A DNA stretch of 64,000 nt from an uncultured Christensenella sp. (lineage in GTDB: Bacteria > Bacillota > Clostridia > Christensenellales > UBA1242), in NCBI GenBank assembly GCA_949296965.1, contig CASFQL010000018.1:3634-67633 (forward strand), given 5' to 3'. The notes beneath the pieces were generated by a model. It searched no databases and had not been told where the DNA came from. It saw only the letters and a list, made by a program, of their open reading frames with translations. Below are positions 17,921-42,254 of the stretch, in pieces (position 1 is the first letter of the stretch; the number at the start of each line of letters is the position of its first letter). The position numbers were made by a program, and so were the translations under genes.

Positions 17921-18192
17921 TATAACACAAAAAACCTCCTTTAAATTACATGCAAAAACATTGAATATTATAATGATTAATTGCTAAATCGCAACTTTAA
18001 AAATTGCAATAAAATGACTTTTTTTGTAGAATAAAATACAATATAAAACAACAAAATTATTCAAGTTTTTTTAGCATAATTTTTTGTTAAATTTTACTAA
18101 CTAATGACTTAATTTGTCTAATATTTTAACAATTTTTAGCATAATAAATGTAGACTTTTATGATTTTGTTTCTAAGTTAACAACACTTTATT

Positions 18193-18375
18193 ACTAAGAT
18201 AAAAAATATTTATATTAAGATAAACAAAATTATATATAAAATTAAAAAAAATCTTTATATTAAGATAAATAAATTTTATATTAAGACAAATAAATTTTAT
18301 ATTAAGATAAATAAATTTTATATTAAGATAAAAATAATCTATATTAAAATAAAAAAACTTTATAGTAGAACAAAA
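18193..18375. repeat. tandem array of ~21-bp repeats (TTTATATTAAGATAAATAAAT), about 7-8 units
   Basis: Three near-identical central units at 18254-18316 are flanked by degenerate units. The 71-aa ORF 18172..18387 is just this repeat read as protein. Confidence 0.85.
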
Positions 18376-20802: not shown

Positions 20803-20848
20803 AACAAAAAAAGAAACTTTATTACGAATAATCTTTTTAAAGTTTCTT
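20803..20848 (-). terminator. terminator after dnaJ
   Basis: Stem AAGAAACTTTA/TAAAGTTTCTT is followed on the minus strand by TTTTTTTGTTAT. Confidence 0.5.
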
Positions 20849-20969
20849 TTTTATGAAAAATTTTTTTAATAAAATTTTTATTATATAAAAATTCTATTAC
20901 AGAAAATTTTTTTAGAAAGGTTTTTATAGAAATTTTTTTACAAAATAAAAACATTTAACGCATTAAAAA

Positions 20970-24091: not shown

Positions 24092-24688
24092 CTACTTAGC
24101 AACTATAACCTGACTATACTTTATAATTGTATCTTCAAGGGTATAACCTGCTTCAAGTTCTTCAATAATATGTCCGCTCTTAAAATTTTTGTCTTCGACC
24201 ATTAAAACAGCATTGTGTTTTTCTGGGTCAAATTTTTTATTTATGCACTCAATTTTTTTAACGCCTATTTTTTCAAGGCTACTAATGATAGATTTTTCTA
24301 TCATATTTATACCTTCAAGCACCTTTTCATCACTAATTAATTTTTTTGCTTTTTTAAAAGAGTCTAATGAAGGCAAAATTGTTTCAAGTGCTTTAACCAT
24401 ACCATCTCGTTTTAATAAAACTTCTTCTTCCCTTGTTCGTTTTCTATAATGTTCAAAGTCTTTTTCAAGTTCCTTATAATCATTTAAGATTTTTGCCATT
24501 TGGACCTTAATCCCATCAAACTCTTCTTGGCTTAAAACAACTTCGTTTTTATCATTTTGACTAGTTTGTTCTTCTTTTTTAGTTTGAGATTTCAAATCTT
24601 TTTCATTGACATTTGACTTTTTGTCAACATTTATTTTCTCGTCAGGTTGTATATTGTCTTTACTTTCCTTTTGTTCGTTAGACATCAA
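24092..24688 (-). CDS. grpE: nucleotide exchange factor GrpE
   Basis: 198 aa protein with coiled-coil YKELEKDFEHYRKRTREE and a C-terminal beta domain. It lies between hrcA and dnaK. Confidence 0.9.
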   Translation of the reverse strand: MMSNEQKESKDNIQPDEKINVDKKSNVNEKDLKSQTKKEEQTSQNDKNEVVLSQEEFDGIKVQMAKILNDYKELEKDFEHYRKRTREEEVLLKRDGMVKALETILPSLDSFKKAKKLISDEKVLEGINMIEKSIISSLEKIGVKKIECINKKFDPEKHNAVLMVEDKNFKSGHIIEELEAGYTLEDTIIKYSQVIVAK

Positions 24689-25731
24689 TCTCCCCCCTTA
24701 TTAAGTTTGTTTTTTACTTCGTCTGTAATAAATTTTAAAACACCTGCAACGCTTGCATAATCTATTCTCTCTGGACCAATAACTCCAACGGTAGCAATTT
24801 TTTCCCCGTTTAGAATTACAGGGGCTTTAATAACTGCACAATCAGGCAACTTTTCAAGTCCGTTTTCATCTCCCAAATTAACCGTAATTTCGCTATTATC
24901 ATCGGTTGCCATAACATCTTCAAGACTAGAATTGTCATCAAGCACACTTAAAATATTCTTTGCTTTATCCGTATCAAATTCAGGGCTATCTAAAAGTCTT
25001 ATTAAACCTTTATTACTAACCTTACTCTTTGTTTTATTGTAATAAACATCTAAAACTTTTAAGACCAACTTAAAAACCTCTTCATATTCTTTCATACAAT
25101 TTTTGATACTCGTATTAAAAACATCAATATTTTGATTTAAAAATTTAATATTTTTACCAATAAATATGCTAGAAAAAACTTTACTTGCGTTCTCACAATC
25201 TTGTTTTGTTATACTAGAAGATGCCCCAATAGTATTTGAAATTGCCCCTGCATTTGTTTCAATAAGCACCAAAACCTGTGAATTAATAAGATATAAAACT
25301 TTTATTGACTCAACAATCAAATTATCAAAACCATCAAACATAAAAACTGTTGGATAATTTGTTTTCGTGCTAACTACCTTTGAAATACTATCAACTATTT
25401 CGCTAAGGCAACTAGTCCTTGCAAATAACTCACCTTTTATATCATCTAAACAACCATTGTAGAACTTACTGTTTTTTAAAGTTTCATTGACAAAAAATCT
25501 ATAACCTTTTGTAGTAGGCACTCTCCCGCCAGATGTGTGAAGTTGTTTCAAATACCCCATTGCTTCAAGTGCATTCAATTCATTCCTAATCGTCGCCGTT
25601 GAAAGATCGTGTAAATTAGTTTGTTTGACAAATAAACTTGTAATCGGACTTGCAACTTTTATATAATTATCTATTGCATTATATAACAATTTTTTCTTTC
25701 TATCAGATAATTCTGGCAAGTCGTCAGTCAT
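24685..25731 (-). CDS. hrcA: heat-inducible transcription repressor HrcA
   Basis: N-terminal winged helix LSDRKKKLLYNAIDNYIKVASPITS...TIRNELNALEAMGYLKQLHTSGGRVPT. There is an ATGA overlap with grpE. Confidence 0.9.
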   Translation of the reverse strand: MTDDLPELSDRKKKLLYNAIDNYIKVASPITSLFVKQTNLHDLSTATIRNELNALEAMGYLKQLHTSGGRVPTTKGYRFFVNETLKNSKFYNGCLDDIKGELFARTSCLSEIVDSISKVVSTKTNYPTVFMFDGFDNLIVESIKVLYLINSQVLVLIETNAGAISNTIGASSSITKQDCENASKVFSSIFIGKNIKFLNQNIDVFNTSIKNCMKEYEEVFKLVLKVLDVYYNKTKSKVSNKGLIRLLDSPEFDTDKAKNILSVLDDNSSLEDVMATDDNSEITVNLGDENGLEKLPDCAVIKAPVILNGEKIATVGVIGPERIDYASVAGVLKFITDEVKNKLNKGGD

Positions 25732-25773: not shown

Positions 25774-25824
25774 TTAGCACTTGTAACATACTAAGTGTTA
25801 GCACTCTCATTTGTTAAGTGCTAA
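25774..25824. promoter_or_regulatory. CIRCE operator(s) of the hrcA-grpE-dnaK-dnaJ operon
   Basis: 25798..25824 reads TTAGCACTC-N9-AAGTGCTAA, one mismatch to the consensus TTAGCACTC-N9-GAGTGCTAA. An overlapping weaker copy, TTAGCACTT-N9/10-AAGTGTTAG, lies at 25774..25801. Confidence 0.85.
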
Positions 25825-25926: not shown

Positions 25927-25952
25927 AAAAAAGACCGAAAAATCTTCGGCGC
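25927..25952 (-). terminator. putative terminator closing the accessory island
   Basis: On the minus strand, CCGAA-GATTT-TTCGG is followed by TCTTTTTTATG, about 45 nt after the stop at 25996. Confidence 0.45.
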
Positions 25953-25995: not shown

Positions 25996-26553
25996 TTATC
26001 TAGTCAATTCTTCCCCAAAATTATCAATTGAACTTTGAACATAATCTGCAAAATTTTTATCTACTGAATAATTTGTTTTTTCTTTAATATCTTTTACTGT
26101 TTCAAAAACCTTTATCTTAGATAATTTACTAAAAGTTTCTTCTTTATCTTCTTTTGTGAAATAATCATATGAAAAGTCTTTGTCTTTTATCAAATCAATT
26201 ATACATTCTCTTAACATACTTTCTAAGTAAAAATCATTTTCAAATCTACCGCTTATATTAAAATCCTTGTCATTAGTTGAAACATTTTTCTTTCCATCTT
26301 TTGCCCAATTAACTCCACAATTAACAAAATCTGTTAAAAATATTCTGCTAGTTTTATTAACATTATTTTTTAAGTAAAGATTATTTTCAAAAGAAGCATT
26401 ATTATTGCAAGCAAGGTTCATAATAATAGTCTTTATTCTATCTTTTTTAACCTTATTTTCAAAAAACTTATTCATTATCATAAATCTTTTAAGATGAATA
26501 TATGCATCATCTACTTCATCATATCTAGAACTTTGTTGCAATAAGGTCGACAT
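25996..26553 (-). CDS. island paralog 4, C-terminal fragment (hypothetical)
   Basis: Carries family motif B (KKDRIKTIIMNLACNNNASFENNLYL) and motif C (VKDIKEKTNYSVDKNFADYV). There is no SD before its ATG, and it overlaps the upstream fragment by 43 nt. Confidence 0.5.
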   Translation of the reverse strand: MSTLLQQSSRYDEVDDAYIHLKRFMIMNKFFENKVKKDRIKTIIMNLACNNNASFENNLYLKNNVNKTSRIFLTDFVNCGVNWAKDGKKNVSTNDKDFNISGRFENDFYLESMLRECIIDLIKDKDFSYDYFTKEDKEETFSKLSKIKVFETVKDIKEKTNYSVDKNFADYVQSSIDNFGEELTR

Positions 26554-26984
26554 AGATTTTGTTTCTTTAATAATTTAAAAACGGGGCTATCCTCTTTGTA
26601 AAGCAAACCTAACTCCTTATCATCGTAACTATCAATTAATTTATCTAATTCCATTACCTTACCATAATTTGATTTATCATAAAAAGCCCCTTTATGAAGT
26701 TTTGAAAGAACAAGGGGTGTAAATTTAACAGTATCTAAGCCTAGTTGTTGATATAACTCAGGCAATAAAACGCACGAATCAATCACACCTTTTTCATAAG
26801 ATTTTCTTGGATTTATAAATATAACTTGCTCGTCCTTATTTATTTCATCTAAATTAAAATTTCCATTCATAAAATTTGCTATAACTTTTCTCTTATATTG
26901 TCTGTAAAGTTCTTTTAAATAAGGATTGTTGATAAATCCTTTACTATCATATCTCAGATCAAATAAATCAAAAAAATCTCTCAT
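26511..26984 (-). CDS. island paralog 4, N-terminal fragment (hypothetical)
   Basis: Carries family motif A (DSCVLLPELYQQLGLDTVKFTPL). An SD GGAGAG lies upstream. Confidence 0.5.
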   Translation of the reverse strand: MRDFFDLFDLRYDSKGFINNPYLKELYRQYKRKVIANFMNGNFNLDEINKDEQVIFINPRKSYEKGVIDSCVLLPELYQQLGLDTVKFTPLVLSKLHKGAFYDKSNYGKVMELDKLIDSYDDKELGLLYKEDSPVFKLLKKQNLCRPYCNKVLDMMK

Positions 26985-27004
26985 ATTCTCTCCAATTAAA
27001 TTTT

Positions 27005-27640
27005 TTAGAACTCTCTTTCTGACTCTTGTGCTATTCTAACACCCGTGCTACTAAGATTTTCATTAAGTTTATGCAAGTAATCTCCATTCAAACAATACCC
27101 CGTTGCACTCTCAATATCCATACTCTTTTCTCTTGGGTCAACAAGTTGCATTTTTACGCCAATTTGTCTTTTTATTCTATCAGGGAAATAATTTTTTACT
27201 TCTTTTCTATAAATAAAACTATCAACTACTTCATCGCTAAATTTCTTTTCATCTGAAAATTCACTTGTATATTTTGGTAATTTATAAGACTTTTCATTTT
27301 GTGCATTATCAAAATATTCTCTAAAATTTTGACCACTTCTCATAAAGGAAGAAGGCATAACATCACATATCTTGCCCTGTGAATTTACTGAGTAAATCAA
27401 AGATGAGTTATCTACACTATTGCCCATTGTAGCATTCAAAACATTAAGTAAAAGTTTTCTTTTCATACCACTTTTTGTAAAATAATTTACTAGTAAATTT
27501 CCTTTTTTAGTTCTGCAAAAAGCACCTGTATCAATGGTAAAATCAGTCCCTTCTTTTCTATTGATACTCTCAATAAAATCTCTTGCCCAAACACCTTTTC
27601 TTAAAATATTATCATATGCTAAACCTTTTTTTGAAGCCAA
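27005..27640 (-). CDS. island paralog 3, C-terminal fragment (hypothetical)
   Basis: Carries motif B (MKRKLLLNVLNATMGNSVDNSSLIY) and motif C (MDIESATGYCLNGDYLHKL). It starts at a TTG inside an A7 tract and overlaps the upstream fragment by 29 nt. Confidence 0.5.
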   Translation of the reverse strand: MASKKGLAYDNILRKGVWARDFIESINRKEGTDFTIDTGAFCRTKKGNLLVNYFTKSGMKRKLLLNVLNATMGNSVDNSSLIYSVNSQGKICDVMPSSFMRSGQNFREYFDNAQNEKSYKLPKYTSEFSDEKKFSDEVVDSFIYRKEVKNYFPDRIKRQIGVKMQLVDPREKSMDIESATGYCLNGDYLHKLNENLSSTGVRIAQESEREF

Positions 27641-27887
27641 CCTTCACAGGAACATAATTTGGCGTAGTAAAACCAAATTCACTTTCCAAAATTTCTGATA
27701 ATAAAATATCTGCGTCAAGTATAAGTTTTGCATTTTTTCTATCGGTTGGTATGTATAAGCCGTATTTAGCAAAGGTTTTATCCATATTTGCTGAACTAAG
27801 GCATTTTTTTACTAATTCATCACTTTTAATAAAACCTTTTCTTCCTAAATTATTAAAATATTCCTTTAAAATATCACTATTAAGCAT
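27612..27887 (-). CDS. island paralog 3, N-terminal fragment (hypothetical)
   Basis: Carries motif A (DADILLSEILESEFGFTTPNYVPV). The ATG at 27887 is preceded by GGGGG. Confidence 0.5.
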   Translation of the reverse strand: MLNSDILKEYFNNLGRKGFIKSDELVKKCLSSANMDKTFAKYGLYIPTDRKNAKLILDADILLSEILESEFGFTTPNYVPVKVGFKKRFSI

Positions 27888-27920
27888 TTTAACCCCCAAA
27901 TTCCATTTAATTAATAACTA

Positions 27921-27949
27921 AATATACTACATAAATATCTTAATTTCAA
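27921..27949 (-). promoter_or_regulatory. putative sigma-A promoter for paralogs 3-4
   Basis: The minus strand reads TTGAAA-17 nt-TATATT, about 35 nt upstream of the ATG at 27887. Confidence 0.45.
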
Positions 27950-28040
27950 TACCCATTTTTTTTAGGCATATATTTTTAGGCATTTTGCTAAGTAAAAAAA
28001 GAAAAAGGATAGAAATTATTAAAATTTTTACCCTTTTTTG

Positions 28041-28162
28041 ACTATTTTTTTAAGTTTTTTCAAGTTTTTTATCCCTTAAAAGTTTTAAAGTTTTGTTAAG
28101 TTTTATTAACTTTTTTATAGTTTTATTAAGTTTTTTAAAACTTTTATTAAGATAGATTTTTT
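28041..28162. repeat. phased T-tract array (about 10 units of AAGTTTTNTT, period 9-11 bp)
   Basis: Units include aagttttttc, aagttttgtt, aagttttatt, aactttttt and aacttttatt. It shares the decamers AAGTTTTATT and AACTTTTATT with the array at 31141. Confidence 0.75.
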
Positions 28163-28219
28163 AACAAACAAAATTAAAATAACTTATTTTTTTTTAAATT
28201 ATTATTATATACATTTTAT

Positions 28220-29248
28220 TTACATTACAAGTTCATCATCTTTTAATAAATTAGAAACAAACTCACAATTATCATAAATTGTATCTTGATAGCGTCTATC
28301 TATCTCGTAACCAATGTTTTCCTTTACATCGCTTGCTATATCAAAACTTGTAACTTGACTAAGTTGTTTAGCAAACTCATTTCTTTCTTTTTCGTCAAAA
28401 TATTTTTTTAAAATTTCATTATTTTTAGTATCATATATAAGTTTATCTCTACCAACATATCCAAATCTTGTTTCAGATAAGTATTTTTTTTGCATTTTCT
28501 TACTCAAATTATTTTGCATATAATAAACATTTTGAGCACTATTCATACTACTAAGCGGAACACAAGATTCAATCATATCAACATCGCCCTTGCTAAAAAA
28601 TTTGTATAAATAATTATATGGACTTCTAGCATTATTATACATTACACAGTCAAGGATTCTCATCTTTATTTTATCTTTAACTGCTCCATGAAAAAATTTC
28701 ATCCTAAACAAATTATTTTTCTCGTGTATAATTGTGTCCAAAGCAAAATTATGTATTTTAGTATCATTTATTCCATTTAAATATCTTAAATTATTTGCCA
28801 TAGTTTTAAGATATTTAATATAAGGAATTCCGATTTTGCTTTCAAGTTTAAACTTATGAAAACTATCTGCAAGAATTGTCTTTCTATCTAAATCTTTATG
28901 AAAAAGTATTTGTAAATATTTTGCATACGCATCTTTTCCGTAAATATCAAGTTTATTATCGCAAGCAAGAAAATTTTTACCATTAACATTTATCATAAAG
29001 TAAATAGGCATATCAAAACCAAAATGTGAATAAAACTGTGAAAAAAATATTTCTGCATCTGTATAAAGATTTTTTTCAATATTAAAAACTCTATATAGTC
29101 CAACATCTGTAAGAATATCTTGGGTTTTACCATTATTTGAAAAAAATGATTTTTCATTTTCGGCTTTACTGCAATAAAGGTCGGAATTAATAAATCTACG
29201 CAAGTTATCTTTTTGTTGTATATCAAAAATAAATCTATTTTTATACAT
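28220..29248 (-). CDS. island paralog 2 (hypothetical, 342 aa)
   Basis: SD AGGAGA upstream. Motif A is DAEIFFSQFYSHFGFDMPIYFMI, motif B KDKIKMRILDCVMYNNARSPYNYLY and motif C DIASDVKENIGYEIDRRYQDTIY. It is clearly homologous to 29260..30306. Confidence 0.75.
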   Translation of the reverse strand: MYKNRFIFDIQQKDNLRRFINSDLYCSKAENEKSFFSNNGKTQDILTDVGLYRVFNIEKNLYTDAEIFFSQFYSHFGFDMPIYFMINVNGKNFLACDNKLDIYGKDAYAKYLQILFHKDLDRKTILADSFHKFKLESKIGIPYIKYLKTMANNLRYLNGINDTKIHNFALDTIIHEKNNLFRMKFFHGAVKDKIKMRILDCVMYNNARSPYNYLYKFFSKGDVDMIESCVPLSSMNSAQNVYYMQNNLSKKMQKKYLSETRFGYVGRDKLIYDTKNNEILKKYFDEKERNEFAKQLSQVTSFDIASDVKENIGYEIDRRYQDTIYDNCEFVSNLLKDDELVM

Positions 29249-29259
29249 AATTTTTTCTC

Positions 29260-30306
29260 CTATAAACAGAGATTACATATCCCAGACCTTAAATCACGGC
29301 TTAAATCTTTTGCTCTTAAATAAACTTCATCTTGGTAAAATTTATTTAATGAATAACCTATATTTTCTTTAACTTCATCAGCAATATCTTTATCTGTAAT
29401 CTTATCAAAATCTTGTGCCAACATAATCCTGCTACCCCTACTAAAATATGTATTTAACTTAAAATCAGTCTTTACATCATTCACAATTTTTTCAACAGTG
29501 GTTGGACTATATACAGTATCAAATGGAAATCTCTTTGAATATGGAGTATCTTTTCTTCGGTAAACTCTACTAAAAACATTGTAGGCACTATTACCGCAAT
29601 TGAGCGGGACTATTGAAGAAACTTGAATGTCATCATTTTTCATTTTTGTTTTGTATACATAGTTAGTAGAATTTCTAGAACTATTGAGCAAAGTTGTGTC
29701 AAGTAAACCCATTTTAATTTTCTCAACGACAGCATTTGTTGAAAAAAGCGAAATGTATTCAGTATTATTTTTTAAAAACAATGAACTCATTATTCTATTT
29801 TTTTTGTCAAAAGAAAACCCTTTTCTATCTTCTTTTTTTGCACTAAAATAGTATTTTAATTTTTCGTAATTTGGCATACTATCATCACTAACCAAATGCG
29901 AACAAACCTTATTAAAATCTCGTGCTAAAATATCTTCATCGCTGTAAGCAAATGAAGGCAAGCCCTGTCTATCCAAATTTAAGTAATTTTCTAAACTTCC
30001 CTTATTTTTTATCATTACATTACAAGCAAGATAATCTATACCACACTTTCTAACCATAAAATAAACGGGAGTAGTAAGACCAAATTTTGAATAGTATTGA
30101 GAAAAGAAAATTTGTGCATCGCAATATTCTTTTGACACAGAATAAAGCAAATAACTACCTAAATCGCAGTCTAAACGCAATAATTTGTCATTAATGGTAG
30201 TTATATTTCCGTTTTCCTTTTTTATAAAATCTGTTTTATCTAAATCTAATACACCATCGTTAGAAAATTTGTCTTTATACTTAGTTATTATACTATTATC
30301 AACCAT
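29260..30306 (-). CDS. island paralog 1 (hypothetical, 348 aa)
   Basis: SD AGGAG upstream. Motif A is DAQIFFSQYYSKFGLTTPVYFMV, motif B VEKIKMGLLDTTLLNSSRNSTNYVY and motif C DIADEVKENIGYSLNKFYQDEVY. Confidence 0.75.
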   Translation of the reverse strand: MVDNSIITKYKDKFSNDGVLDLDKTDFIKKENGNITTINDKLLRLDCDLGSYLLYSVSKEYCDAQIFFSQYYSKFGLTTPVYFMVRKCGIDYLACNVMIKNKGSLENYLNLDRQGLPSFAYSDEDILARDFNKVCSHLVSDDSMPNYEKLKYYFSAKKEDRKGFSFDKKNRIMSSLFLKNNTEYISLFSTNAVVEKIKMGLLDTTLLNSSRNSTNYVYKTKMKNDDIQVSSIVPLNCGNSAYNVFSRVYRRKDTPYSKRFPFDTVYSPTTVEKIVNDVKTDFKLNTYFSRGSRIMLAQDFDKITDKDIADEVKENIGYSLNKFYQDEVYLRAKDLSRDLRSGICNLCL

Positions 30307-30318
30307 TTTATCTCCTAA

Positions 30319-30963
30319 TTAAAATTTACTCTTATCGTCAATATCATCATCAAAAATTGGAGCAAGATACATCATTGCAAGTCGTCTTTCTTTTGCAAGT
30401 TCAGCATCTCTCCTTGCAATTTGTGCCCTATACTCAGCCTTTTTTATCTGTTCTTCTTCTTCATTTAATTGCTTTTTAATTTTCTCTCTTTTCTTAGATA
30501 AAGCCCTTTTGTCTTTTTCAACTTTTAAAAACATCTTTTTTGCTTTTTCAAATTTTCGTATTTCTTCGGTATTTTCAAGTGTGATATTATATTTTTTTCT
30601 TTCATAAATTGGAAGTGCTTTCTTAACCTTTTCTTCTAGCGTAGCAAGTCTAAATTTCATTGCCTTTAAACTGTCAATAAGTCTGTCAAGCAGGTCTATT
30701 TCTCCTTTACAACTATAAATTACACTAACCCCATTCTCATCTTTTGATAAAACTTTCTCATCTTCTCTATCACTATACTCTTTTCTAAACCTTTCATAAG
30801 TCAATATGAGATTGTCAAGTTGTGCTTTTTCGGCTTGTATCTCAATTTGTCTTTTTTGCAACTGCTCAATGTTTTTTTGAGCAACTTTATAGGCAGTTTC
30901 ATTATCAACACTTCTGTCTGTCAAATATCCTATGATGCCTTTTTCTTTTAATTCTTTAAACAT
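30319..30963 (-). CDS. coiled-coil protein (hypothetical, ~214 aa), first gene of the island
   Basis: The ATG at 30963 is preceded by AAGAGAGG, so the ORF-track TTG at 30987 is an extension. The protein is highly charged and heptad-rich (QLQKRQIEIQAEKAQLDNL; KKQLNEEEEQIKKAEYRAQIARRDAELAKERR). Confidence 0.65.
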   Translation of the reverse strand: MFKELKEKGIIGYLTDRSVDNETAYKVAQKNIEQLQKRQIEIQAEKAQLDNLILTYERFRKEYSDREDEKVLSKDENGVSVIYSCKGEIDLLDRLIDSLKAMKFRLATLEEKVKKALPIYERKKYNITLENTEEIRKFEKAKKMFLKVEKDKRALSKKREKIKKQLNEEEEQIKKAEYRAQIARRDAELAKERRLAMMYLAPIFDDDIDDKSKF

Positions 30964-30991
30964 AAAGACCTCTCTTTCTAAGAACAAAAAT

Positions 30992-31020
30992 ATTATACTC
31001 TAATAGCAAATTTTTTTCAA
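30992..31020 (-). promoter_or_regulatory. putative sigma-A promoter of the island operon
   Basis: The minus strand reads TTGAAA-17 nt-TATAAT, about 30 nt upstream of the ATG at 30963. Confidence 0.5.
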
Positions 31021-31100: not shown

Positions 31101-31138
31101 TAAAAAAGACTAGAATTTTTTAAATCTAGCCTTTTTTG
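31101..31138 (-). terminator. putative terminator downstream of hemW
   Basis: On the minus strand, GGCTAGA-loop-TCTAGTC is followed by TTTTTTAATTTT. Confidence 0.45.
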
Positions 31139-31140
31139 TT

Positions 31141-31260
31141 AACTTTTATTAAGTTTTATTATATTTTATTATGTTTTATTATCTTTTACTATGTTTTATT
31201 AATTTTTGTTATTTTTTATTATATTTTATTAGATTTTAACATTTTCTATTAGTTTTTTCA
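31141..31260. repeat. strictly 10-bp-phased T-tract array, 12 units (A-N-N-TTTTATT)
   Basis: The units are aacttttatt aagttttatt atattttatt atgttttatt atcttttact atgttttatt aatttttgtt attttttatt atattttatt agattttaac attttctatt agttttttca. The register is exact over 120 bp. Confidence 0.9.
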
Positions 31261-31274
31261 TAAAATGCTTTTCT

Positions 31275-32414
31275 TTATAATAACTTTAAAACAATACTAT
31301 CCAATACATAGTAAGCATTTTCACATACTTTTATTCTTCCGTTCCTTAATGAAATAAAGCCATGGCTACATAGAAATTCAATCTCATCTTTTTTATCTCT
31401 TACAATATGTGTTCCAAAATTATAATCTAAGTCTTCAATACTAATTCCATACTTTGTTCTAAGTCCTAGCATAATAGTCTCTTCCTTTCGCATTTGTAAA
31501 GTAAGTTTCTCTTTTGAAACAACAGGAATTATATCATCTCTTAAATTCTCAATATACAAATCAAAATCTTCGGTATTGTTAAACCTAGTTTCTTCCATAT
31601 AAGAATGTGAAGAAAGTCCAAATCCTAAATATTCTCCAACTGACCAATAGTTTAGGTTATGTTTACACTCATAGTCCGGGAGTGCAAAATTAGATACTTC
31701 ATATCTTTTTATTCCCGCCTTATTAAGCAAACTATAAACGGCATTATACATATCAATAGTTTCATCTTCTGTTGGGAAAGGAATATTTTGTTCAAGCGAC
31801 ATATTAAATAATTTTGTGCCTTCTTCCAAAATTAGTGAGTAACAAGAAATATGTTTAATCTTACTTTTAATTAAATATCTAGCCATCTTTTTAACATCAC
31901 TTAGAGTTTGATATGGAAGACCTATCATCATATCTACATTTATATTATCAAAACCACATTTTTTAACGAGTTTAATTGCGTTTTTAAGTTGTTTTGAGTT
32001 ATGGCGTCTACCTATAAAACTTAACACTTTATCATTAAGTGATTGTCCACCAATACTTATTCTATTAACTCCAATAAGTTTATATTCTCTTAGTTTGTCT
32101 TCCGTAATATTATCTGGGTTACATTCAAGCGTAATCTCCGCATCTTTAACTACTTTAAAATTGTTTTTAATTTCTAAAACAATTCTAGTCATTTCCCCCT
32201 GTTCCAACTCACTAGGCGTTCCGCCACCAAAATAGATTGAGATAACTTTATAGAAATTACCATATTCCTTTGCTCTAAGTCTTATTTCCTTGCAAAGCAT
32301 ATCAACATACTCTTTTTTTCTATTTTCCTTATCGCAAAAGGATACAAATGAACAATAATTACATTTTTCCCCACTACAAAATGGGATATGAACATATAAA
32401 GATAGAGTTTTCAT
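31275..32414 (-). CDS. hemW: radical SAM heme chaperone HemW (HemN-like, oxygen-independent coproporphyrinogen oxidase family)
   Basis: N-terminal YVHIPFCSGEKCNYCSF and a 379 aa length. It lies immediately downstream of lepA as in Bacillus. Confidence 0.85.
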   Translation of the reverse strand: MKTLSLYVHIPFCSGEKCNYCSFVSFCDKENRKKEYVDMLCKEIRLRAKEYGNFYKVISIYFGGGTPSELEQGEMTRIVLEIKNNFKVVKDAEITLECNPDNITEDKLREYKLIGVNRISIGGQSLNDKVLSFIGRRHNSKQLKNAIKLVKKCGFDNINVDMMIGLPYQTLSDVKKMARYLIKSKIKHISCYSLILEEGTKLFNMSLEQNIPFPTEDETIDMYNAVYSLLNKAGIKRYEVSNFALPDYECKHNLNYWSVGEYLGFGLSSHSYMEETRFNNTEDFDLYIENLRDDIIPVVSKEKLTLQMRKEETIMLGLRTKYGISIEDLDYNFGTHIVRDKKDEIEFLCSHGFISLRNGRIKVCENAYYVLDSIVLKLL

Positions 32415-34212: not shown

Positions 34213-34379
34213 ATATAATTTATTATAAAATAACTAAAACAATATTACAACTAAATTTGCAAATAAAATTTTTCACAAAAAATGTTAAAGCAAATTTAAG
34301 GTAGCATTTTAACAAATTTTGTAACCAACAAAACTAAAAAATAAAAATAATTCAACTTTTTGCAAAGAATGAAATATAT

Positions 34380-34640
34380 AAAAAATTAGATAAATAAAAT
34401 AAATAGGAAATAAAGATAAATAAAATTAAAAAGTAGATAAATTATCAAATAATTAAACACAATAAAAATAAATATTTAATAAGCAAAATAGATAAAAATA
34501 AGGACTAATAAAAAAAACTAATAAAAGTAAAAAAACAAATGTAGAAATAAAAGTAAAAAATAAAGTTAAATAAGAACTAGTTAGAAAAAAATAAATAAGA
34601 ATAAATAAATAATAAATAAGAATAAAATAACAAAACTTAA
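34380..34640. repeat. A-tract-rich quasi-periodic region (AATAAATAAG-type units)
   Basis: GATAAATAAAA and AATAAATAAG units recur. The clearest 10-11 bp phasing is at 34591-34630, which is the reverse complement of the CTTATTTATT type. Confidence 0.5.
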
Positions 34641-34847
34641 TAAAAAAACTAATTGACTATTTAATCTAAAAATCAATTAGTTATTTATTAAAGTTAATTT
34701 TAATAAAAACTCTTTTACAATAAATTTTAAAATATAAATAACAAATTTTAAAGTGTTAATAATAAATTTTAAAGTGTAAAAACTTTATCTCAAAAACAAA
34801 AGTATTGCTACTAACAATTTTCATTTTTACTTAACGACGACAAATTC

Positions 34848-35839: not shown

Positions 35840-36832
35840 TTAATTAGGAACAGGACAGTTATTTTCATCATAACTCCACTCCCCTGCCCAATAGACAGGT
35901 CCATCACTATAATTCCAATTACTATTCCACCCACTAGGCTTGCTACTTACTTCGCAATATATTGTTAAACTGCTACAAAATTGAAATACAGAAGAACCTA
36001 TACTTATTACTCCACTTAGAATTACTATACTTGTTAAACTACTACAATATCGAAATGCATAATCACCTATACTTGTTATGCTATTTGGAATTTCTACATT
36101 CACTAAATTTGAACAATTATAAAACACTCCAGTTGAAGAACTAGCACTTATAATATTAGACATTGAGTTTGGGAGCACTATACTTGTTATATTGCTTTCT
36201 TTAAAGCCCGCCTCCGATAGACTTGTTACACTATGCGAAATAATAATATCAGTTGCCCCATTTATAATACCACTTTTATCACCCGTCGAGCAGTTTGGGG
36301 TTAAGTAGGTTGGGGTTAGATAAGTAAAGTCACTATTTGGAACATCATACCAATATTCTTGTGTCGGAGTTGATATGTAATATTTTTTACTATCAAAATT
36401 TACTCCATTTATTGAGTTATATGTAGTTGAACTATTTAAACTACCATTTACATTTAAATTAAAGTTAACATTTAATTGTATTTCACTTACTTTTTCAAAA
36501 TAATAAAACCCTGCCCCGTCGCTATTTGTTATATCATTCATATTTGTAGTCGTGCCATTACTTACTATTGGAGTTACACCCGTTAATTTAAACTTAGTTT
36601 TATCGCTATTGTATACAACCGCAGTATCTTCAACTGCTTGTGTAGAATTAACTCCATCATAACTAAGTTGTATTGGACTATATTTGTATGTTGCAGATAT
36701 ATCTGTTTGAATATTTTGCATAGTTGCAGAAAAAACAACAACCGCCGTTGTAATCGCTAAACAAATTAAGGCAATCAATAAAAATATTAATAATTGAATA
36801 CTCCTTTTTTCACTTTTTCTCCATCTGCACAC
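35840..36832 (-). CDS. BspA-type leucine-rich-repeat surface protein with N-terminal membrane anchor
   Basis: N-terminal TM IQLLIFLLIALICLAITTAVVVF and C-terminal LRR units (IPNSITSIGDYAFRYCSSLTSIVILSGVISIGSSVFQFCSSLT). The GTG start is uncertain. Confidence 0.7.
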   Translation of the reverse strand: MCRWRKSEKRSIQLLIFLLIALICLAITTAVVVFSATMQNIQTDISATYKYSPIQLSYDGVNSTQAVEDTAVVYNSDKTKFKLTGVTPIVSNGTTTNMNDITNSDGAGFYYFEKVSEIQLNVNFNLNVNGSLNSSTTYNSINGVNFDSKKYYISTPTQEYWYDVPNSDFTYLTPTYLTPNCSTGDKSGIINGATDIIISHSVTSLSEAGFKESNITSIVLPNSMSNIISASSSTGVFYNCSNLVNVEIPNSITSIGDYAFRYCSSLTSIVILSGVISIGSSVFQFCSSLTIYCEVSSKPSGWNSNWNYSDGPVYWAGEWSYDENNCPVPN

Positions 36833-36982
36833 TCCCTACAATAAATTTTACATATACTTACAACGAATTTTGAATTCATTTACAATATATCTTCCATACA
36901 CTTACAATATATTTTGCATACATTCACAATATAATTTGCATACACTTACAATATATTTTTCATACATTCACAATATATAATA
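36829..36982. repeat. tandem array of ~22-bp repeats (CATACAYTYACAATATAWTTTG), about 7 units
   Basis: Four near-perfect units occupy 36895-36982, preceded by three degenerate units. The array fills the divergent region between the LRR gene and rarA. Confidence 0.85.
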
Positions 36983-37080
36983 ATAGTTTTTGTAATTTTT
37001 TTGCAAATAAATTAATATATTTTGACATACTTTACTTTTATTGTCATTTGTGTTATCTTTTTTATATGGAATATTTTTCA

Positions 37081-38346
37081 ATGTATAGTAACAAAAAACC
37101 TTTAAGCGAGAGAATGAGACCTACCACATTAGAAGAATTTGTAGGACAAAAGCACATTGTTTCAAAGAACTCTCTTTTAGATAGAGCAATTAGAGCACAA
37201 GTGCTAGGTAGTTGTATTTTTTATGGGCCACCCGGAACGGGCAAAACTACTCTTGCTCATATCATTGCCACTAACTCGCAAGGGGAAATTCAAAAACTCA
37301 ATGCAGTTTCTAGCGGTGTTAACGAAGCAAGAGAAATAATTGACAAGGCAAAACAGGAATTTGAATTGTTTGGCAAAAAGACATACTTATTTTTGGACGA
37401 ATGTCATAGGTGGAGCAAGGCGCAAAGTGATTGTATTTTGCAAGCCATTGAAGAAGGTCATATTATTTTTATTGGCTCTACAACCGAAAATCCCTACACT
37501 AGTATGACTCGCGCTATTGTTTCTAGGTGCAGAGTCTTTGAGTTTAAACCAATAGAAAAGAAAGATATAATTGAAGTCTTAAAAAGGGCTGTGAATGATA
37601 AAGAAAAAGGTCTAGGTGCCCTACCTGTAAAAGTTGAAGATGATGCTTATGAGTATTTTGCCTTTGCTTGTGGCGGAGATGTTAGACAGGCTATTAACGG
37701 GCTTGAACTTGCCGTTAACACTACAAATCTAAACAAAAATAAAGAAATTGTTATAACAAAAGAAGTTGCTAGTCAAAGTATTGGGACTTCTTCTTATAGT
37801 TTAGACTCAACAATGTTCTATGATATGTTGTCCGCTTTTTGTAAGAGTATTCGTGGTAGTGATTCAGATGCTGCTCTCTATTGGTCAAGTAGATTGATAA
37901 AGGCTGGCTGCGACCCTAGAATTATTGCTAGAAGACTGATTGCTCATTCTAGTGAAGATATTGGAATGGCGGATAGTAATGCACTACTACTTTCAACTTG
38001 CGCTCTAATAAGTTGCGAAAAACTAGGCTTGCCTGAGTGTTTGCTTACCCTTTCTCACGCAATTATATATGCCTGTGAAGCGGAAAAATCAAATTCGGTT
38101 TATATTGCTATGTCAAAGGCAACTAGCGATGTCGAAAATTCAAAAGATGATGCAGTCCCAAACAACTTAAAGAATCACCCTTCTATCAATGATGACAAAA
38201 CGGCTGGCTACAAATATCCACACGATTTTGGCGGATATGTTAAACAAGATTACTTGCCAAAATCTCTTAAAGATAGAGTCTACTATACTCCAAGTAATAA
38301 CGGAAAAGAAAGGGGTTTAAAGAGAAAAAAATTTGATAAAGTGTAG
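37081..38346 (+). CDS. rarA: replication-associated recombination protein RarA/MgsA (AAA+ ATPase)
   Basis: Motifs RMRPTTLEEFVGQKHIV, Walker A GPPGTGKTT and Walker B LFLDECHRW. The ATG at 37081 gives the usual short N-terminus; alternatives are 37066 ATG and 37048 TTG. Confidence 0.9.
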   Translation: MYSNKKPLSERMRPTTLEEFVGQKHIVSKNSLLDRAIRAQVLGSCIFYGPPGTGKTTLAHIIATNSQGEIQKLNAVSSGVNEAREIIDKAKQEFELFGKKTYLFLDECHRWSKAQSDCILQAIEEGHIIFIGSTTENPYTSMTRAIVSRCRVFEFKPIEKKDIIEVLKRAVNDKEKGLGALPVKVEDDAYEYFAFACGGDVRQAINGLELAVNTTNLNKNKEIVITKEVASQSIGTSSYSLDSTMFYDMLSAFCKSIRGSDSDAALYWSSRLIKAGCDPRIIARRLIAHSSEDIGMADSNALLLSTCALISCEKLGLPECLLTLSHAIIYACEAEKSNSVYIAMSKATSDVENSKDDAVPNNLKNHPSINDDKTAGYKYPHDFGGYVKQDYLPKSLKDRVYYTPSNNGKERGLKRKKFDKV

Positions 38347-38549: not shown

Positions 38550-39251
38550 ATGATTGTTGAAAGTTTTATAGCCTTTATGAACAAAATAATGCTATTTAGT
38601 GCGTATGTAAACAATGCTTCAAATTTTCCAAAGCCACTAACAGCCCAGCAAGAAAAAGAATACTTTAAAGCATACAAAAATGGTGACAATAAAGCAAAAG
38701 AAAAATTAATCTCACACAACTTAAGATTAGTTGTTCATGTAGCAAAAAAATACAGTGGGACCGCCGAGAGTGATGATTTAATATCAGTAGGCTCAATAGG
38801 TCTAATAAAGGCAGTAAACACATACGAATTTGACAAAAACACACAGTTTTCCACCTATGCAGCAAGATGTATAGAAAATGAGATTTTAATGTTACTACGA
38901 ATAAATAAGAAACATATCCCCGTTATGAGTTTAAACGAAAGTTTAGGGAAAGATAAAGAAGGAAATGATGTTGCAATACAAGATATCATACCAGACGAAA
39001 ATGAAAATGTTGTTGAAAGAGTTGAGAACTCAGTTTTAACTGAAAAATTACTAAAAATCATTGAAAAGTCTTTAAGTCACAGAGAATATCAAATTATGTG
39101 TATGAGATATGGACTTAATAACACACCCGTCTACACCCAAAGAGAAATTGCTAAAAAATTAAATATTTCTCGTTCGTATATAAGTAGACTTGAAAAAAAA
39201 TCACTTGATATACTAAGAGAAAAGACAGAAAAGGAAGATATTTATTACTAA
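38550..39251 (+). CDS. sigK: sporulation sigma factor, pro-sigma-K type
   Basis: The N-terminal pro-sequence and junction IMLFSAYVNNASNFPKPLT resemble B. subtilis pro-sigma-K as recalled (..VFLVSYVKNNAFPQPLS). Further matches are HNLRLVVHVAKKY, TYAARCIENEILM and LGKDKEGNDVAIQDII, and an SD AGGAAGG lies upstream. The gene is uninterrupted. Confidence 0.85.
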   Translation: MIVESFIAFMNKIMLFSAYVNNASNFPKPLTAQQEKEYFKAYKNGDNKAKEKLISHNLRLVVHVAKKYSGTAESDDLISVGSIGLIKAVNTYEFDKNTQFSTYAARCIENEILMLLRINKKHIPVMSLNESLGKDKEGNDVAIQDIIPDENENVVERVENSVLTEKLLKIIEKSLSHREYQIMCMRYGLNNTPVYTQREIAKKLNISRSYISRLEKKSLDILREKTEKEDIYY

Positions 39252-39787: not shown

Positions 39788-40134
39788 GTTAGGCAGACAG
39801 GTGGTCGCAGTCCAATCGTAAAGGTTGGAGTGAGGAAAGTCCGAGCTTCATAGAACAGGGTGCTGAGTAACTCTCAGTGAAGGTGACTTTAAGGAAAGTG
39901 CAACAGAAATAGACAGCAAAGTAAAATTTGCAATGGTGGAAAGGCGGAGTAAGAGCCCACCGACAAGTTAGTGATAACTAGTGCCATGTAAACCCCACCC
40001 GAAGCAAGATTAAAAAGAATCGTTATAAAGTTGTTCGCTAGATTCTTTAAAAATATCGCTTGAACTATCTGGCAACAGATAGTCTAGATAGATGACCATC
40101 AAATACAGAACTCGGCTTATAGTTTGCACTAATC
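39788..40134 (+). ncRNA. rnpB: RNase P RNA (bacterial type B)
   Basis: Universally conserved P4 halves GAGGAAAGTCCG (39832-) and ACAGAACTCGGCTTA (40106-), plus GTAAACCCCACCCGAAGCAAG. The 5' GTTAGGCAGAC pairs with the 3' GTTTGCACTAA (P1). The ends are approximate. Confidence 0.9.
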
Positions 40135-40170
40135 ATAACTACTTGCGTATGCAGGTAGTTATGTTTTTGT
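40135..40170 (+). terminator. rho-independent terminator of rnpB
   Basis: ATAACTACTTGC-GTAT-GCAGGTAGTTAT is followed by GTTTTTGT. Confidence 0.7.
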
Positions 40171-40286
40171 ATAAAGAAAACAAAAAAGTAGATGCTTTTT
40201 GATATGTTATCATTTTGTATCTACTTTTTTATATTTGATTTTTATATCTAACTTTTTTAATTTTATTTTTGCATTATTTTTTATAT

Positions 40287-42254
40287 TTAAAATTTAGCAA
40301 TCATAACATTGAGCATAGGTTTTCTTTTTACTTTTCTACTTATTGCACTAGAAGCAATTTTTCTAACCATACCTTGAATTTCTTCGTCAGTATAATTTCT
40401 CAAATCTGTTTCCTTTAAAGTGTTAAAAATTGTTTCTTTTGCCTGTGGGACAATTTTGTCATACTCATTTTCATAAATTGAGCCCCTTGAAACGATATCT
40501 GGTTTATCAATAATTTTCCCTGTTTGAAGCGACATTTTAACTAAAATTATAACAAGGCCACTTTCACTTAAAGCCCTTCTATCTCTCATTACTTGACAAT
40601 CAGGGGTGCCAACGCCCGTTCCGTCAATTAAAATATCCCCCGCCTTGACCATCTTTGAAACTTTTAAAACATCTTTATTAAGTTCGACCTGCATACCAAG
40701 TTCTGGGATAATGACATTTCTTTCAGGCATACCAAGTTCAAGGGCTAACATTTGATGATTTTTCAAATGCCTATATTCCCCGTGTATTGGTATAAAAAAT
40801 TTAGGTTTAATAACTGAATGTAAAATTTTTAGTTCTTCTTTATAAGCGTGCCCTGATGCGTGGACATCTGCAATTTGATTATAAATTAGATTACAATCTT
40901 TTCTATAAAGTTTATTAATTAAATCATTTATTTGAGTTTCATTTCCTGGGATAGGAGAAGATGACAAGATGACAACATCATTTTTGCCAAGCTTAACCTT
41001 ATTAAAAGCATCACTTGCAATTCTAGCAAGCGCGCTAGCACCTTCCCCCTGAGAACCTGTCGAAATTATAAGCAAGTTCTTGTCTGCATAATTTGAAATT
41101 CTATCAATCTCAATAATCGCTTCTTTTTGGCAATAAAGTTCCCCCATTTTAAAAGCAATATCACTGACATTGAGCATACTTCTACCTGTAAAAGCGACCT
41201 TCCTATTGTGTTTTACAGCAGAATTAATTATTTGTTGCAAACGGTAAACATTTGAAGCAAAAGTTGCAATAATAATTCTTTCTTCACTATATTTATCTAG
41301 CAAACTATCAATCGTTTTACCTACAACAGTTTCACTAAGAGAAAATCCCTCTCGCTCCACATTAGTGCTTTCACATAACAACAAATCGACGCCTTTTTTA
41401 CCTGCTTCTGCAAGCCTTTTCATATCGCAAACATTATTAGGAATATTAAAATCAATCTTAAAATCGCCCGTATGAACAACTACGCCTGCTGGGGTGGTTA
41501 TAATATAAGCGCATGCCCCGGGAATTGAGTGAGTTATAGAAACGGCTTCTAGCATAAATTTACCCGCATACACAACAGTGCCCGTTTTAATAGGTTTTAA
41601 AAGAGCATTAAGTTTTCCTTGATGGTCCCTTAGTTTTTTATCAACAAGCCCAAGAGTTATTGGAGTCCCATAAATTGGAGCCTTGACAATGCTTAAAACA
41701 TTTGGAATACAGCCAATATGGTCTTCGTGTCCGTGTGTTATAAAAATTGCTCTTAATTTAGATTTTCTTTCTTCAAGGTATGATAAATCTTGTATAACTT
41801 TTTCAACTCCTGGAATACTTTCATCTCCAAAAGCGTGCCCAGCATCAACCATTATCATATCATCGCCATACTCAAACAAAGTCATATTCTTTCCAATCTC
41901 GTCAATGCCACCTAAAAATGTTATTTTTAAGTTATTGTAACCATGGGGCTTTCTTTGTCTATCAATATTCAAATTTGTATTTTGATTTCTTAAATTCTTA
42001 ATATTTAAGTTTTGCTTATTTTGCTTTAATGATGATTGATTAGAATTTTTATTTTGTCTTAAATCGCTATTTACATAAACCTTTTTATTATTTTCTTTTC
42101 TATTAAAACTTTTTTTATTTACACTTTTATCATCATTATTTGGAACCTTATAATACCTAACAACTTTTTTCTCACTTTCACTTTTCATTTCTTCCATACT
42201 ATCTAAAATACTCCTATAAAATATAAATTTATTATCAATTAATTTTTTAAACAT
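40287..42254 (-). CDS. rnj: ribonuclease J (beta-CASP metallo-beta-lactamase) with N/K-rich N-terminal extension
   Basis: The core starts at about aa 110 (LKITFLGGIDEIGKNM), with the HGHEDHIG motif and a beta-CASP plus C-terminal domain. The first ~105 aa are low-complexity, and the exact start is uncertain. Confidence 0.9.
   Translation of the reverse strand: MFKKLIDNKFIFYRSILDSMEEMKSESEKKVVRYYKVPNNDDKSVNKKSFNRKENNKKVYVNSDLRQNKNSNQSSLKQNKQNLNIKNLRNQNTNLNIDRQRKPHGYNNLKITFLGGIDEIGKNMTLFEYGDDMIMVDAGHAFGDESIPGVEKVIQDLSYLEERKSKLRAIFITHGHEDHIGCIPNVLSIVKAPIYGTPITLGLVDKKLRDHQGKLNALLKPIKTGTVVYAGKFMLEAVSITHSIPGACAYIITTPAGVVVHTGDFKIDFNIPNNVCDMKRLAEAGKKGVDLLLCESTNVEREGFSLSETVVGKTIDSLLDKYSEERIIIATFASNVYRLQQIINSAVKHNRKVAFTGRSMLNVSDIAFKMGELYCQKEAIIEIDRISNYADKNLLIISTGSQGEGASALARIASDAFNKVKLGKNDVVILSSSPIPGNETQINDLINKLYRKDCNLIYNQIADVHASGHAYKEELKILHSVIKPKFFIPIHGEYRHLKNHQMLALELGMPERNVIIPELGMQVELNKDVLKVSKMVKAGDILIDGTGVGTPDCQVMRDRRALSESGLVIILVKMSLQTGKIIDKPDIVSRGSIYENEYDKIVPQAKETIFNTLKETDLRNYTDEEIQGMVRKIASSAISRKVKRKPMLNVMIAKF

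Follow-up and report, generated by a model that had tools for sequence, protein, structure and literature searches.

The closest described systems to the locus reported here are bacterial proteins of the HipA type. For Hip-kinase toxins, the recognition criteria include a catalytic D-x-H-x-x-N motif and a Mg2+-binding motif (Gerdes et al. 2021, PMC8262856), and CtkA (JHP940) of Helicobacter pylori has been deposited (3akj/3akk/3akl) as an active, proinflammatory, single-gene kinase. In addition, PDC-M03A has been annotated as HipA and is paired with a HIRAN protein (PMC13245101). New kinase-like and pseudokinase families of bacteria are being actively sought by structure-guided approaches, for example in a recent survey (bioRxiv 10.64898/2026.09.18.752743), so the kind of finding presented here is already known. 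We analyzed a 64,000-nucleotide stretch (hereafter, the window) of contig CASFQL010000018.1 from an uncultured Christensenella sp. (assembly GCA_949296965.1), in which a gene for a coiled-coil protein (CC) and four tandem paralogous genes (P1 to P4) lie between hemW and hrcA. Our results make it probable that P1 to P4 belong to an undescribed kinase-fold family, which is vertically inherited as an array immediately upstream of hrcA and whose members in the subclade of the window are pseudokinases with a retained non-catalytic role.

The original prediction on this DNA had found no known domain in the four proteins and had suggested structure modelling of P1 followed by a Foldseek search. Both were carried out. 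AlphaFold2 (AF2) models of P1 reached a predicted local distance difference test (pLDDT) score of 74.8 and a predicted template modelling (pTM) score of 0.80 with 9 sequences, and 85.4 and 0.87, respectively, with 66 sequences. In the P1 model, the N-lobe consists of β-strands 34-39, 42-47 and 50-55, a helix (59-73) and two further β-strands (82-87 and 90-96), and the later part contains a helix (190-205), a loop (206-215), two β-strands (216-223 and 226-234) and another loop (235-239). The order of these elements is that of protein kinases (β1-3/αC/β4-5 ... αE/catalytic loop/β7-8/DFG). When the PDB was searched with Foldseek, CtkA ranked first for both P1 models (probability 1.0, TMq 0.41, TMt 0.48), followed by HipA and by HipT-type kinases of Legionella (7wcf and 7vkc), and the remaining matches were all kinases (APH, choline-kinase and eukaryotic type) with lower probability. 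The two AF2 models and the Foldseek results place P1, at the level of the fold, in the HipA/CtkA branch of the protein-kinase-like superfamily; the modelled fold is two-lobed, protein-kinase-like and closest to those of CtkA and HipA. The absence of a known domain therefore holds for curated libraries and is superseded by the kinase-like predicted fold.

Alignments revealed that about half of the members of the wider family carry a recognisable kinase residue set, which we define in P1 numbering as K/R55, D210, N215 and D236. Among 64 representative proteins, 30 are canonical in this sense and 27 lack both Asp residues. Ahead of β3, the family alignment shows just one conserved Gly (G50). Canonical members have a Lys at the end of β3 (position 55), the αC motif K59-x3-D63-A-E65-I-L-L-S-Q (containing the Asp/Glu motif DAEILLSQ), the loop F-T-x2-A-x5-K-M-R-x2-D203-x-A-S-[FY]-N208-T-D210-R-H-x2-N215-[FY] and the Mg-binding motif [IV]-D236-[FY]-x2-S-G. 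In P1, P2, P3 and P4, by comparison, position 55 (canonical K/R) is occupied by Y, F, P and N, position 210 (canonical D) by S, A, V and A, position 212 (canonical H) by N, S, N and F, and position 236 (canonical D) by N, S, S and D, respectively. In related contigs (given here by L numbers), the canonical set is present in 19 of the 20 array copies of L010, L014 and L020, and in none of the 17 copies of the window, L001, L004, L005 and L019. Judged against the copies of L010, L014 and L020, P1 to P4 keep the kinase fold and have their catalytic residues replaced; they are predicted to be pseudokinases that have probably lost activity. Even the canonical members are hardly recognised by existing profiles: Pfam scans of 28 of them gave sub-threshold matches (E ~0.02-0.04) to ABC1 (5/28), PI3_PI4 (two), HipA_2 (one) and Fam20C (one), all of which are kinase families.

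At the sequence level, P1 and P2 are related with a BLASTP E-value of 1e-35, P2 matches P4 over nearly the full length (3e-7), and P1 and P3 are weakly similar in pairwise comparison (E 0.02). A family hidden Markov model (HMM) matched all pieces of P1 to P4 at E-values of 4e-11 to 5e-72 (3e-17 to 4e-40 for the P3 pieces and 4e-11 to 4e-40 for the P4 pieces), a check that is partly circular because the seed of the model included P1, P2, P3 (the sister-strain copy) and a repaired P4. An alignment containing the split P3 and P4 pieces was discarded because the N-terminal piece of P4 was misplaced. HMMER searches against 1.84 billion cluster representatives retrieved at least 150 proteins at E≤1e-3, including 112 at E≤1e-10, most of which are 270-350 aa in length. 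Word-indexed homolog searches returned 2-4 proteins each and badly understate the size of the family; a narrow scan of species-representative genomes found a single locus (L005), and a metagenome scan found three additional loci.

Except for noise, nothing was found for P1, P2 and the four P3/P4 pieces in scans of Pfam, NCBIfam, PADLOC and PHROGs. Pfam scans of 66 sampled family members gave no kinase-family match at E≤0.01 and nothing consistent, namely five unrelated families with one member each (E 0.003-0.008). All 10 of the 10 clusters checked were without a name in the source databases, and family profiles searched by sequence against the PDB gave nothing or noise; a match to actin-fragmin kinase was disregarded (E 0.8). 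No relatives were found in phages and plasmids by tblastn or in two viral-contig scans, and Foldseek against viral structures gave weak kinase-like matches only. In agreement with the original prediction of proteins without signal peptides or transmembrane segments, a hydropathy scan detected no hydrophobic segment in CC or P1 to P4 (maximum KD19 ≤1.07). The family comprises cytoplasmic proteins of ~270-370 aa and is undescribed, being contained in none of Pfam, NCBIfam, PHROGs and PADLOC. Four diverged paralogs of an unrecognised family had indeed been predicted, and this holds in these libraries. The three motifs (A to C) described as shared by the four proteins are also real, and they extend across this much larger family.

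We then compared the hemW-hrcA junction among relatives, as the original prediction had proposed. In all seven related contigs that show the hrcA side, the family lies upstream of hrcA, in 1-8 tandem copies. As in the window, the array is located between lepA-hemW and hrcA in four of the seven, with the gene orders GDPD, lepA, hemW, array, ypsA, helix-turn-helix (HTH) gene and hrcA-grpE-dnaK-dnaJ in L010 (5 copies), the same frame in L020 (7 copies), lepA, hemW, array, feoAB and hrcA in L014 (8 copies), and lepA, hemW, array, hrcA, grpE and dnaK in L016 (1 copy). L019 (the same as L012) has rubrerythrin, the array (7 copies) and hrcA-grpE-dnaK-dnaJ, and L004 has a sigK-like gene, mgsA, the array (3 copies) and hrcA. 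L006 to L009 resemble L004 with an inserted GNAT gene and 3 copies, the hrcA side being outside these contigs, and L005 ("uncultured Christensenella sp.") has a single copy elsewhere. Where comparable, identity to the window is 87-92% for DnaK, 62-78% for HrcA, 56-57% for HemW and 56-76% for MgsA, and G+C is 26-34% in all contigs; the compared contigs come from different species up to family-level relatives. Because the same family sits beside hrcA in seven other contigs, the array is conserved content of the clade and not the accessory island that had been proposed, an outcome that the original prediction had itself named as a ground for rejecting its claim. It is best described, on this comparative evidence, as an old and vertically inherited occupant of the junction in a low-GC clostridial clade, which has undergone birth-and-death changes in copy number.

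Further examination of the region gave no sign of a genomic island. G+C is 0.20-0.30 across the region, compared with 0.284 for the whole window, with no deviation from the flanks. No tRNA genes were found, the repeat search gave A-tract repeats only and no flanking att-like repeats at the locus, there are no integrase or transposase ORFs (open reading frames) between hemW and hrcA, and the presence of the family is not patchy. Tandem diverging paralogs that split a conserved gene block are thus insufficient evidence for a defence island, since comparative synteny shows vertical inheritance here.

A neighbour-joining tree of the array copies separated three subtypes: A (P1, P2, L004_3, L019_5-7 and L005), B (P3, L004_1 and L019_1-2) and C (P4, L004_2 and L019_3-4), all of which are common to the window, L004 and L019, that is, to the degenerate clade. 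In the same tree, the copies of L014 form a lineage-specific expansion and those of L010 and L020 are one-to-one orthologs. Gene order is B-C-A in L004, BB-CC-AAA in L019 and (CC)-A-A | B-C in the window, the latter matching the two transcription units described below. The ratio of non-synonymous to synonymous substitution rates (dN/dS) between L004 and L006 is 0.16-0.22 for the array genes and 0.05 for mgsA; it is 0.05-0.32 for the array genes between L012 and L019, and 0.13 between P1 and its 65%-identical ortholog in L001. The degenerate copies of L004, L006 and L019 are all intact. In view of the low dN/dS, which indicates purifying selection, the degenerate copies are functional genes that evolve faster than housekeeping genes. 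Three ancient subtypes therefore persist under purifying selection, with dN/dS of ~0.05-0.3.

The array genes evolve 3-4 times faster than mgsA, and this rate is one of several features that would also suit a defence or conflict locus, the function favoured in the original prediction. In such a locus, the fast-diverging HipA-like paralogs would serve as toxin-like kinases or as decoys directed at phages or competitors, and CC would be their partner. HipA kinases are the toxins of toxin-antitoxin systems (PMC8262856), some canonical relatives weakly match the HipA-like candidate defence protein PDC-M03A, copy number varies from 1 to 8 among relatives with unrelated GNAT, FeoAB and YpsA/HTH genes inserted in the arrays, and disruptions of the genes are polymorphic between strains. 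However, the chromosomal position is stable across lineages that differ as much as the above DnaK and HemW identities indicate, G+C follows the flanks, marks of mobility are missing, and the phage, plasmid and viral collections searched contain no relatives. Moreover, the suggested test for known anti-phage systems (PADLOC-DB 2.0) yielded no match to P1 to P4, no HIRAN or HTH antitoxin partner is encoded in the window, and the catalytic residues are lost, so that there is no kinase toxin here. We regard a defence function as unlikely.

The array can be compared between strains with the help of the metagenome contigs L002 and L003, both of which share 99.4% identity with the window. The array had been described as four homologous genes; P1 and P2 are whole, but P3 and P4 are not single ORFs here, each carrying one frameshift. 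P3 is split into the ORFs 27612-27899 and 27005-27640 by an extra A in the A7 run at 27626-27632, where the window reads TTC AAA AAA AGG and the sister strain has A6. P4 is split into the ORFs 26511-26984 and 25996-26553, with AAA at 26566-26568 compared with AAAA in L002. P3 is open through the frameshift site in both L002 and L003 (full-length, 293 aa, in L002). In L002, P4 likewise stays open past its site, as far as that contig extends; L003 stops before P4. In L002 and L003, P2 contains a nonsense codon (TTG>TAG, L170*), and P1 is intact in all strains. The frameshifts in P3 and P4 are probably real mutations and not assembly noise, because the remaining long ORFs of the window, among them sigA, trmK, rpe, rlmN, fmt, def, dnaK, lepA and several with a length of 600-1269 aa, are uninterrupted. 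The sole B and C copies are frameshifted in this strain, and the subtype set is thereby partly inactivated. Runs of the A7 type can undergo transcriptional slippage or phase variation, and some full-length P3 might still be made via slippage at this site.

Such disruptions could mean that the array is a decaying relic, functionless in this species and being lost by pseudogenisation, an explanation that partly overlaps with the favoured one. The two frameshifts, which the intact housekeeping ORFs of the same 64 kb mark as probably real, the nonsense codon in P2 and the loss of the catalytic residues all point in this direction, as do the 9 non-synonymous versus 8 synonymous differences between near-identical strains. 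This 9:8 pattern is compatible with relaxed constraint or very recent divergence, and short divergence times inflate dN/dS. Decay is further contradicted by the intact P1 of all strains, by CC (unchanged over 543 nt between strains), by the low dN/dS of P1 and of CC (0.06) relative to their L001 orthologs, and by the degenerate copies of L004, L006 and L019, all of which are intact and under purifying selection; slippage at the A7 run might soften the effect of the P3 frameshift as well. It seems quite unlikely that the array is simply a relic.

Several points nevertheless weigh against a family of pseudokinases with a retained role. The fold comes from prediction and the TM-scores to solved kinases are modest (0.4-0.5), because of which we consider the P1 family a distant kinase branch. 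Profile comparison with Escherichia coli HipA by hhalign is not significant (E 0.4 and 0.07), and membership at the sequence level is therefore not claimed. P1 and P2 retain D203, N208, R211 and N215, and some kinase-fold proteins without the canonical residues are still enzymes via other residues or chemistry. Two of the four genes are disrupted in the window and a third gene in the sister strain, and besides these three disrupting mutations the strains of the species differ by 8 synonymous and 9 non-synonymous changes; loss of function may be under way at the locus in this species. Finally, the adjacency to hrcA may be purely historical, since a terminator and a separate CIRCE (controlling inverted repeat of chaperone expression) promoter lie between the array and hrcA.

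With these points taken into account, we still consider a vertically inherited pseudokinase array the most probable explanation. Ancestral members of the family most likely functioned as ATP-dependent phosphotransferases, because the arrays of three relatives keep the β3 Lys, the αC motif (DAEILLSQ), the catalytic loop (NTDRHxxN[FY]) and the Mg-binding Asp (ID[FY]xxSG). In the subclade of the window, no copy has the full catalytic set, and purifying selection has nevertheless retained the A, B and C subtypes, a combination that makes non-catalytic action most likely. The retained fold of the pseudokinases would serve to bind a ligand, a nucleotide or another protein, perhaps other members of the array and, in this genus, CC, and the proteins may have a regulatory or scaffolding role. 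This explanation builds on the evidence for fold, sequence homology, synteny, loss of motifs, selection and gene disruptions, from which we infer ancestral kinase activity, a non-catalytic binding role and cooperation of the subtypes and CC.

Two more far-reaching versions can be envisaged, which together we judge rather unlikely: a multi-paralog kinase/pseudokinase module coupled to the HrcA-GrpE-DnaK-DnaJ operon, modifying or sequestering chaperones or their clients, or an immune or decoy array that diversifies at a fixed chromosomal site. If either were true, the conversion of a whole array of active kinases into pseudokinases within one subclade would amount to a natural experiment in pseudoenzyme evolution. 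The present analysis provides a predicted fold and an evolutionary context for a protein family from uncultured low-GC gut Clostridia that is unnamed in curated libraries. Its organisation is unusual, with 1-8 tandem copies held at one site of the core genome beside the dnaK operon, and a subclade in which every copy is degenerate and three subtypes are nevertheless under selection offers a tractable bacterial case for the role of pseudokinases and the diversification of kinase arrays. Our literature searches found no fixed-site tandem arrays and no subclade-wide catalytic loss of this kind.

All features between hemW (31275-32414) and hrcA (24685-25731) are on the minus strand. The first predicted promoter (TTGAAA-17-TATAAT, 30992..31020) is of the sigma-70 type with 11/12 matches, and its -10 region is also conserved in the L001 ortholog. 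It precedes CC (30319..30963), whose ATG at 30963 follows a GAGAGG ribosome-binding site. After a gap of 12 nt comes P1 (29260..30306), a type-A kinase-fold protein of 348 aa, and after another 11 nt P2 (28220..29248), a type-A paralog of 342 aa; the coordinates originally given for both were correct and both ORFs are intact here. P2 and P3 are separated by an A+T-rich spacer of 330 bp, which holds a second promoter-like site (TTGAAA-17-TATATT) at 27921..27954 (hexamer span 27949-27921) with a conserved GGGTATTGAAA -35 region. The type-B paralog P3 (27005..27887, frameshifted by the +1 A described above) and the type-C paralog P4 (25996..26984, frameshifted by the 1-nt deletion) follow, and an intrinsic terminator (25934..25950) ends the array ahead of the hrcA promoter (25856-25829) and CIRCE (25798-25824), both of which had been predicted and were found. 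The layout suggests two transcription units, CC-P1-P2 and P3-P4, read from two predicted sigma-A-type promoters. The promoter and terminator attributed to the locus were thus both located, but the idea of one inserted unit gives way to two units with a spacer between them.

The GGGTATTGAAA sequence has a single exact copy in the 64-kb window (27944-27954). In relatives, it precedes the first array gene of L004 (~4920) and L006 (~1040) and the single copy of L005 (~410). This -35 hexamer with a conserved 5' extension, present in four contigs of different species, may represent a regulatory site common to them. Ahead of the first promoter, a phased A-tract array of ~12 10-bp repeats (AATAAAAnnT on the minus strand) covers 31134..31263, and nearly the same A-tract repeat unit, CTTAATAAAA, is found upstream of both array promoters (31134-31263 and 28046-28150). 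Phased A-tract tandem repeats of 10-11 bp or 21-22 bp are also present at 18173-18364, 20847-20945, 34374-34780, 36837-36978 and 40195-40290. These A-tract arrays look like intrinsically curved upstream DNA; because many other intergenic regions of the window carry them, they represent a genome-wide trait.

As originally predicted, the locus is headed by a gene for a highly charged coiled-coil protein of 214 aa. K, R, D and E make up 44% of the CC residues, and heptad periodicity is significant in residues 85-125 and 120-214 (p=0.001 for 120-214). CC gave no family match in Pfam, NCBIfam, PADLOC and PHROGs, PADLOC returning just JetC at E 0.58. The protein is 79% identical to its L001 ortholog and does not differ from the L002 and L003 proteins over 180 aa. 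Among the arrays compared, CC is confined to the window, L002, L003 and the 72%-identical L001, being absent from all others, and it is genus-specific.

The window encodes a SigK/SigE-like pro-sigma factor (38550-39251) beside mgsA (37048-38346), which suggests a spore-former. In L004, the SigK-like gene and mgsA directly precede the array, indicating rearrangement between these relatives. Families of bacterial spore kinases comprise multiple paralogs and are frequently degenerate. We considered that P1 to P4 might be spore-associated kinase-like proteins analogous to the CotS/CotI/YtaA paralogs, with a role in the structure or maturation of the spore coat. Apart from the pro-sigma factor gene, YtaA among the Foldseek matches would fit such a role. 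The YtaA match is poor, however (probability 0.35-0.57, TM ~0.2, rmsd above 20 Å), compared with the probability of 1.0 for CtkA; both promoters of the locus are sigma-A-like and not SigE- or SigK-like, no sporulation gene is linked to any array, and P1 to P4 have no Pfam APH or CotS match. A spore-associated role is very unlikely.

Some further observations concern the junction and the surrounding sequence. Unrelated genes sit within the array or in the array-hrcA gap in different relatives (L006 3286-3891; L014 13457-16415; L010 13075-13887; L020 14491-16440), including GNAT acetyltransferase, feoA-feoB, ypsA with Xre-type HTH genes, and CN-hydrolase, and the junction therefore tolerates insertions. 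In L008 (465-1271), the N-terminus of a glycosyltransferase-2 is fused to the C-terminal half of a type-B paralog exactly at 'DVACGITSRP', which is either a chimera of metagenome assembly or a real recombination. Sample ERZ24773311 yields both L003, the near-identical strain of the window with a 4-gene array and CC, and L019 with its 7-gene array; organisms with different array versions thus co-occur in one sample. Elsewhere in the window, a bacterial class A RNase P RNA is located at 39789-40136 (272 bits), in a genome of 28% G+C with a Bacillota-type hrcA-grpE-dnaK-dnaJ operon, and the region 35840-36832 encodes a leucine-rich-repeat protein of the BspA type (Pfam LRR_5), which has a hydrophobic stretch at its N-terminus. 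A 22-bp tandem repeat in 6.5 copies (36837-36978) lies ahead of this gene.

Among the known systems, CtkA is the best structural match to both P1 models (Foldseek E 2e-4 to 7e-4, TMt up to 0.49). CtkA and P1 to P4 are alike in size (~280-350 aa) and in having a single-domain HipA-like kinase fold without a large N-terminal lid, and they differ in that identity between CtkA and P1 is ~11% with a modest TM-score. Unlike the active single-gene kinase, P1 to P4 are tandem paralogs without the catalytic Lys, Asp and Asp; they also have no hydrophobic N-terminal or membrane-spanning segment by hydropathy scan.

The Hip family (E. coli HipA, HipT and Legionella 7wcf/7vkc) has a fold related to that of P1 (probability 0.9-1.0, TMq 0.37-0.46). 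In the non-significant hhalign comparison, the best local alignments put the family NTDRHxxN[FY] loop on HipA ATDGHAKNF (residues 294-324) and the DAE...G[LI]xxP αC motif on HipA 201-262. Membership of P1 to P4 in the Hip toxin family was rejected on four counts. The D-x-H-x-x-N motif, present in L010, L014 and L020, is missing from P1 to P4, and the Mg2+-binding Asp is kept by P4 only. An antitoxin of the HTH or HipS type is not encoded next to the array, the sole extra gene of the locus being CC, in which no HTH was found; the HTH genes near the L010 and L020 arrays are downstream and separated by ypsA. P1 to P4 have no Pfam or NCBIfam match to the HipA_C, HipA_N and HipA_2 profiles at E≤1, and the HipA_2 match of the single canonical member has an E-value of 0.028. 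Moreover, the copies of the present family, compared with Hip kinases, occur in arrays of 1-8.

Likeness to PDC-M03 is seen in the canonical relatives, 7 of 28 of which match PDC-M03A in PADLOC from the N-lobe through the catalytic loop (best E 4e-5). P1 to P4 are unmatched and have no HIRAN partner, and PDC-M03 itself is a candidate system only; because the matches are partial and weak, we propose kinship with PDC-M03A at the superfamily level only. The canonical relatives also resemble PI3K/PI4K-type and ABC1/UbiB kinases in having DRHxxN followed by a DFG-like Asp, and by its sequence the DRHxxN loop is of the HipA and PI3/4-kinase type. In this case the differences are that the PI3_PI4_kinase and ABC1 matches lie far below the gathering thresholds, that lipid-kinase accessory domains are absent, and that the motif is lost in the copies of the window. 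As far as its available part goes, the oral-microbiome survey (bioRxiv 10.64898/2026.09.18.752743) mentions neither one-site tandem arrays in which all copies have switched to degenerate motifs, nor CtkA or hrcA. The kinase-like proteins of KINtaro and this survey share with the present family a kinase fold recognised by structure only, degenerate motifs and a role that is presumed to lie in regulation or scaffolding.

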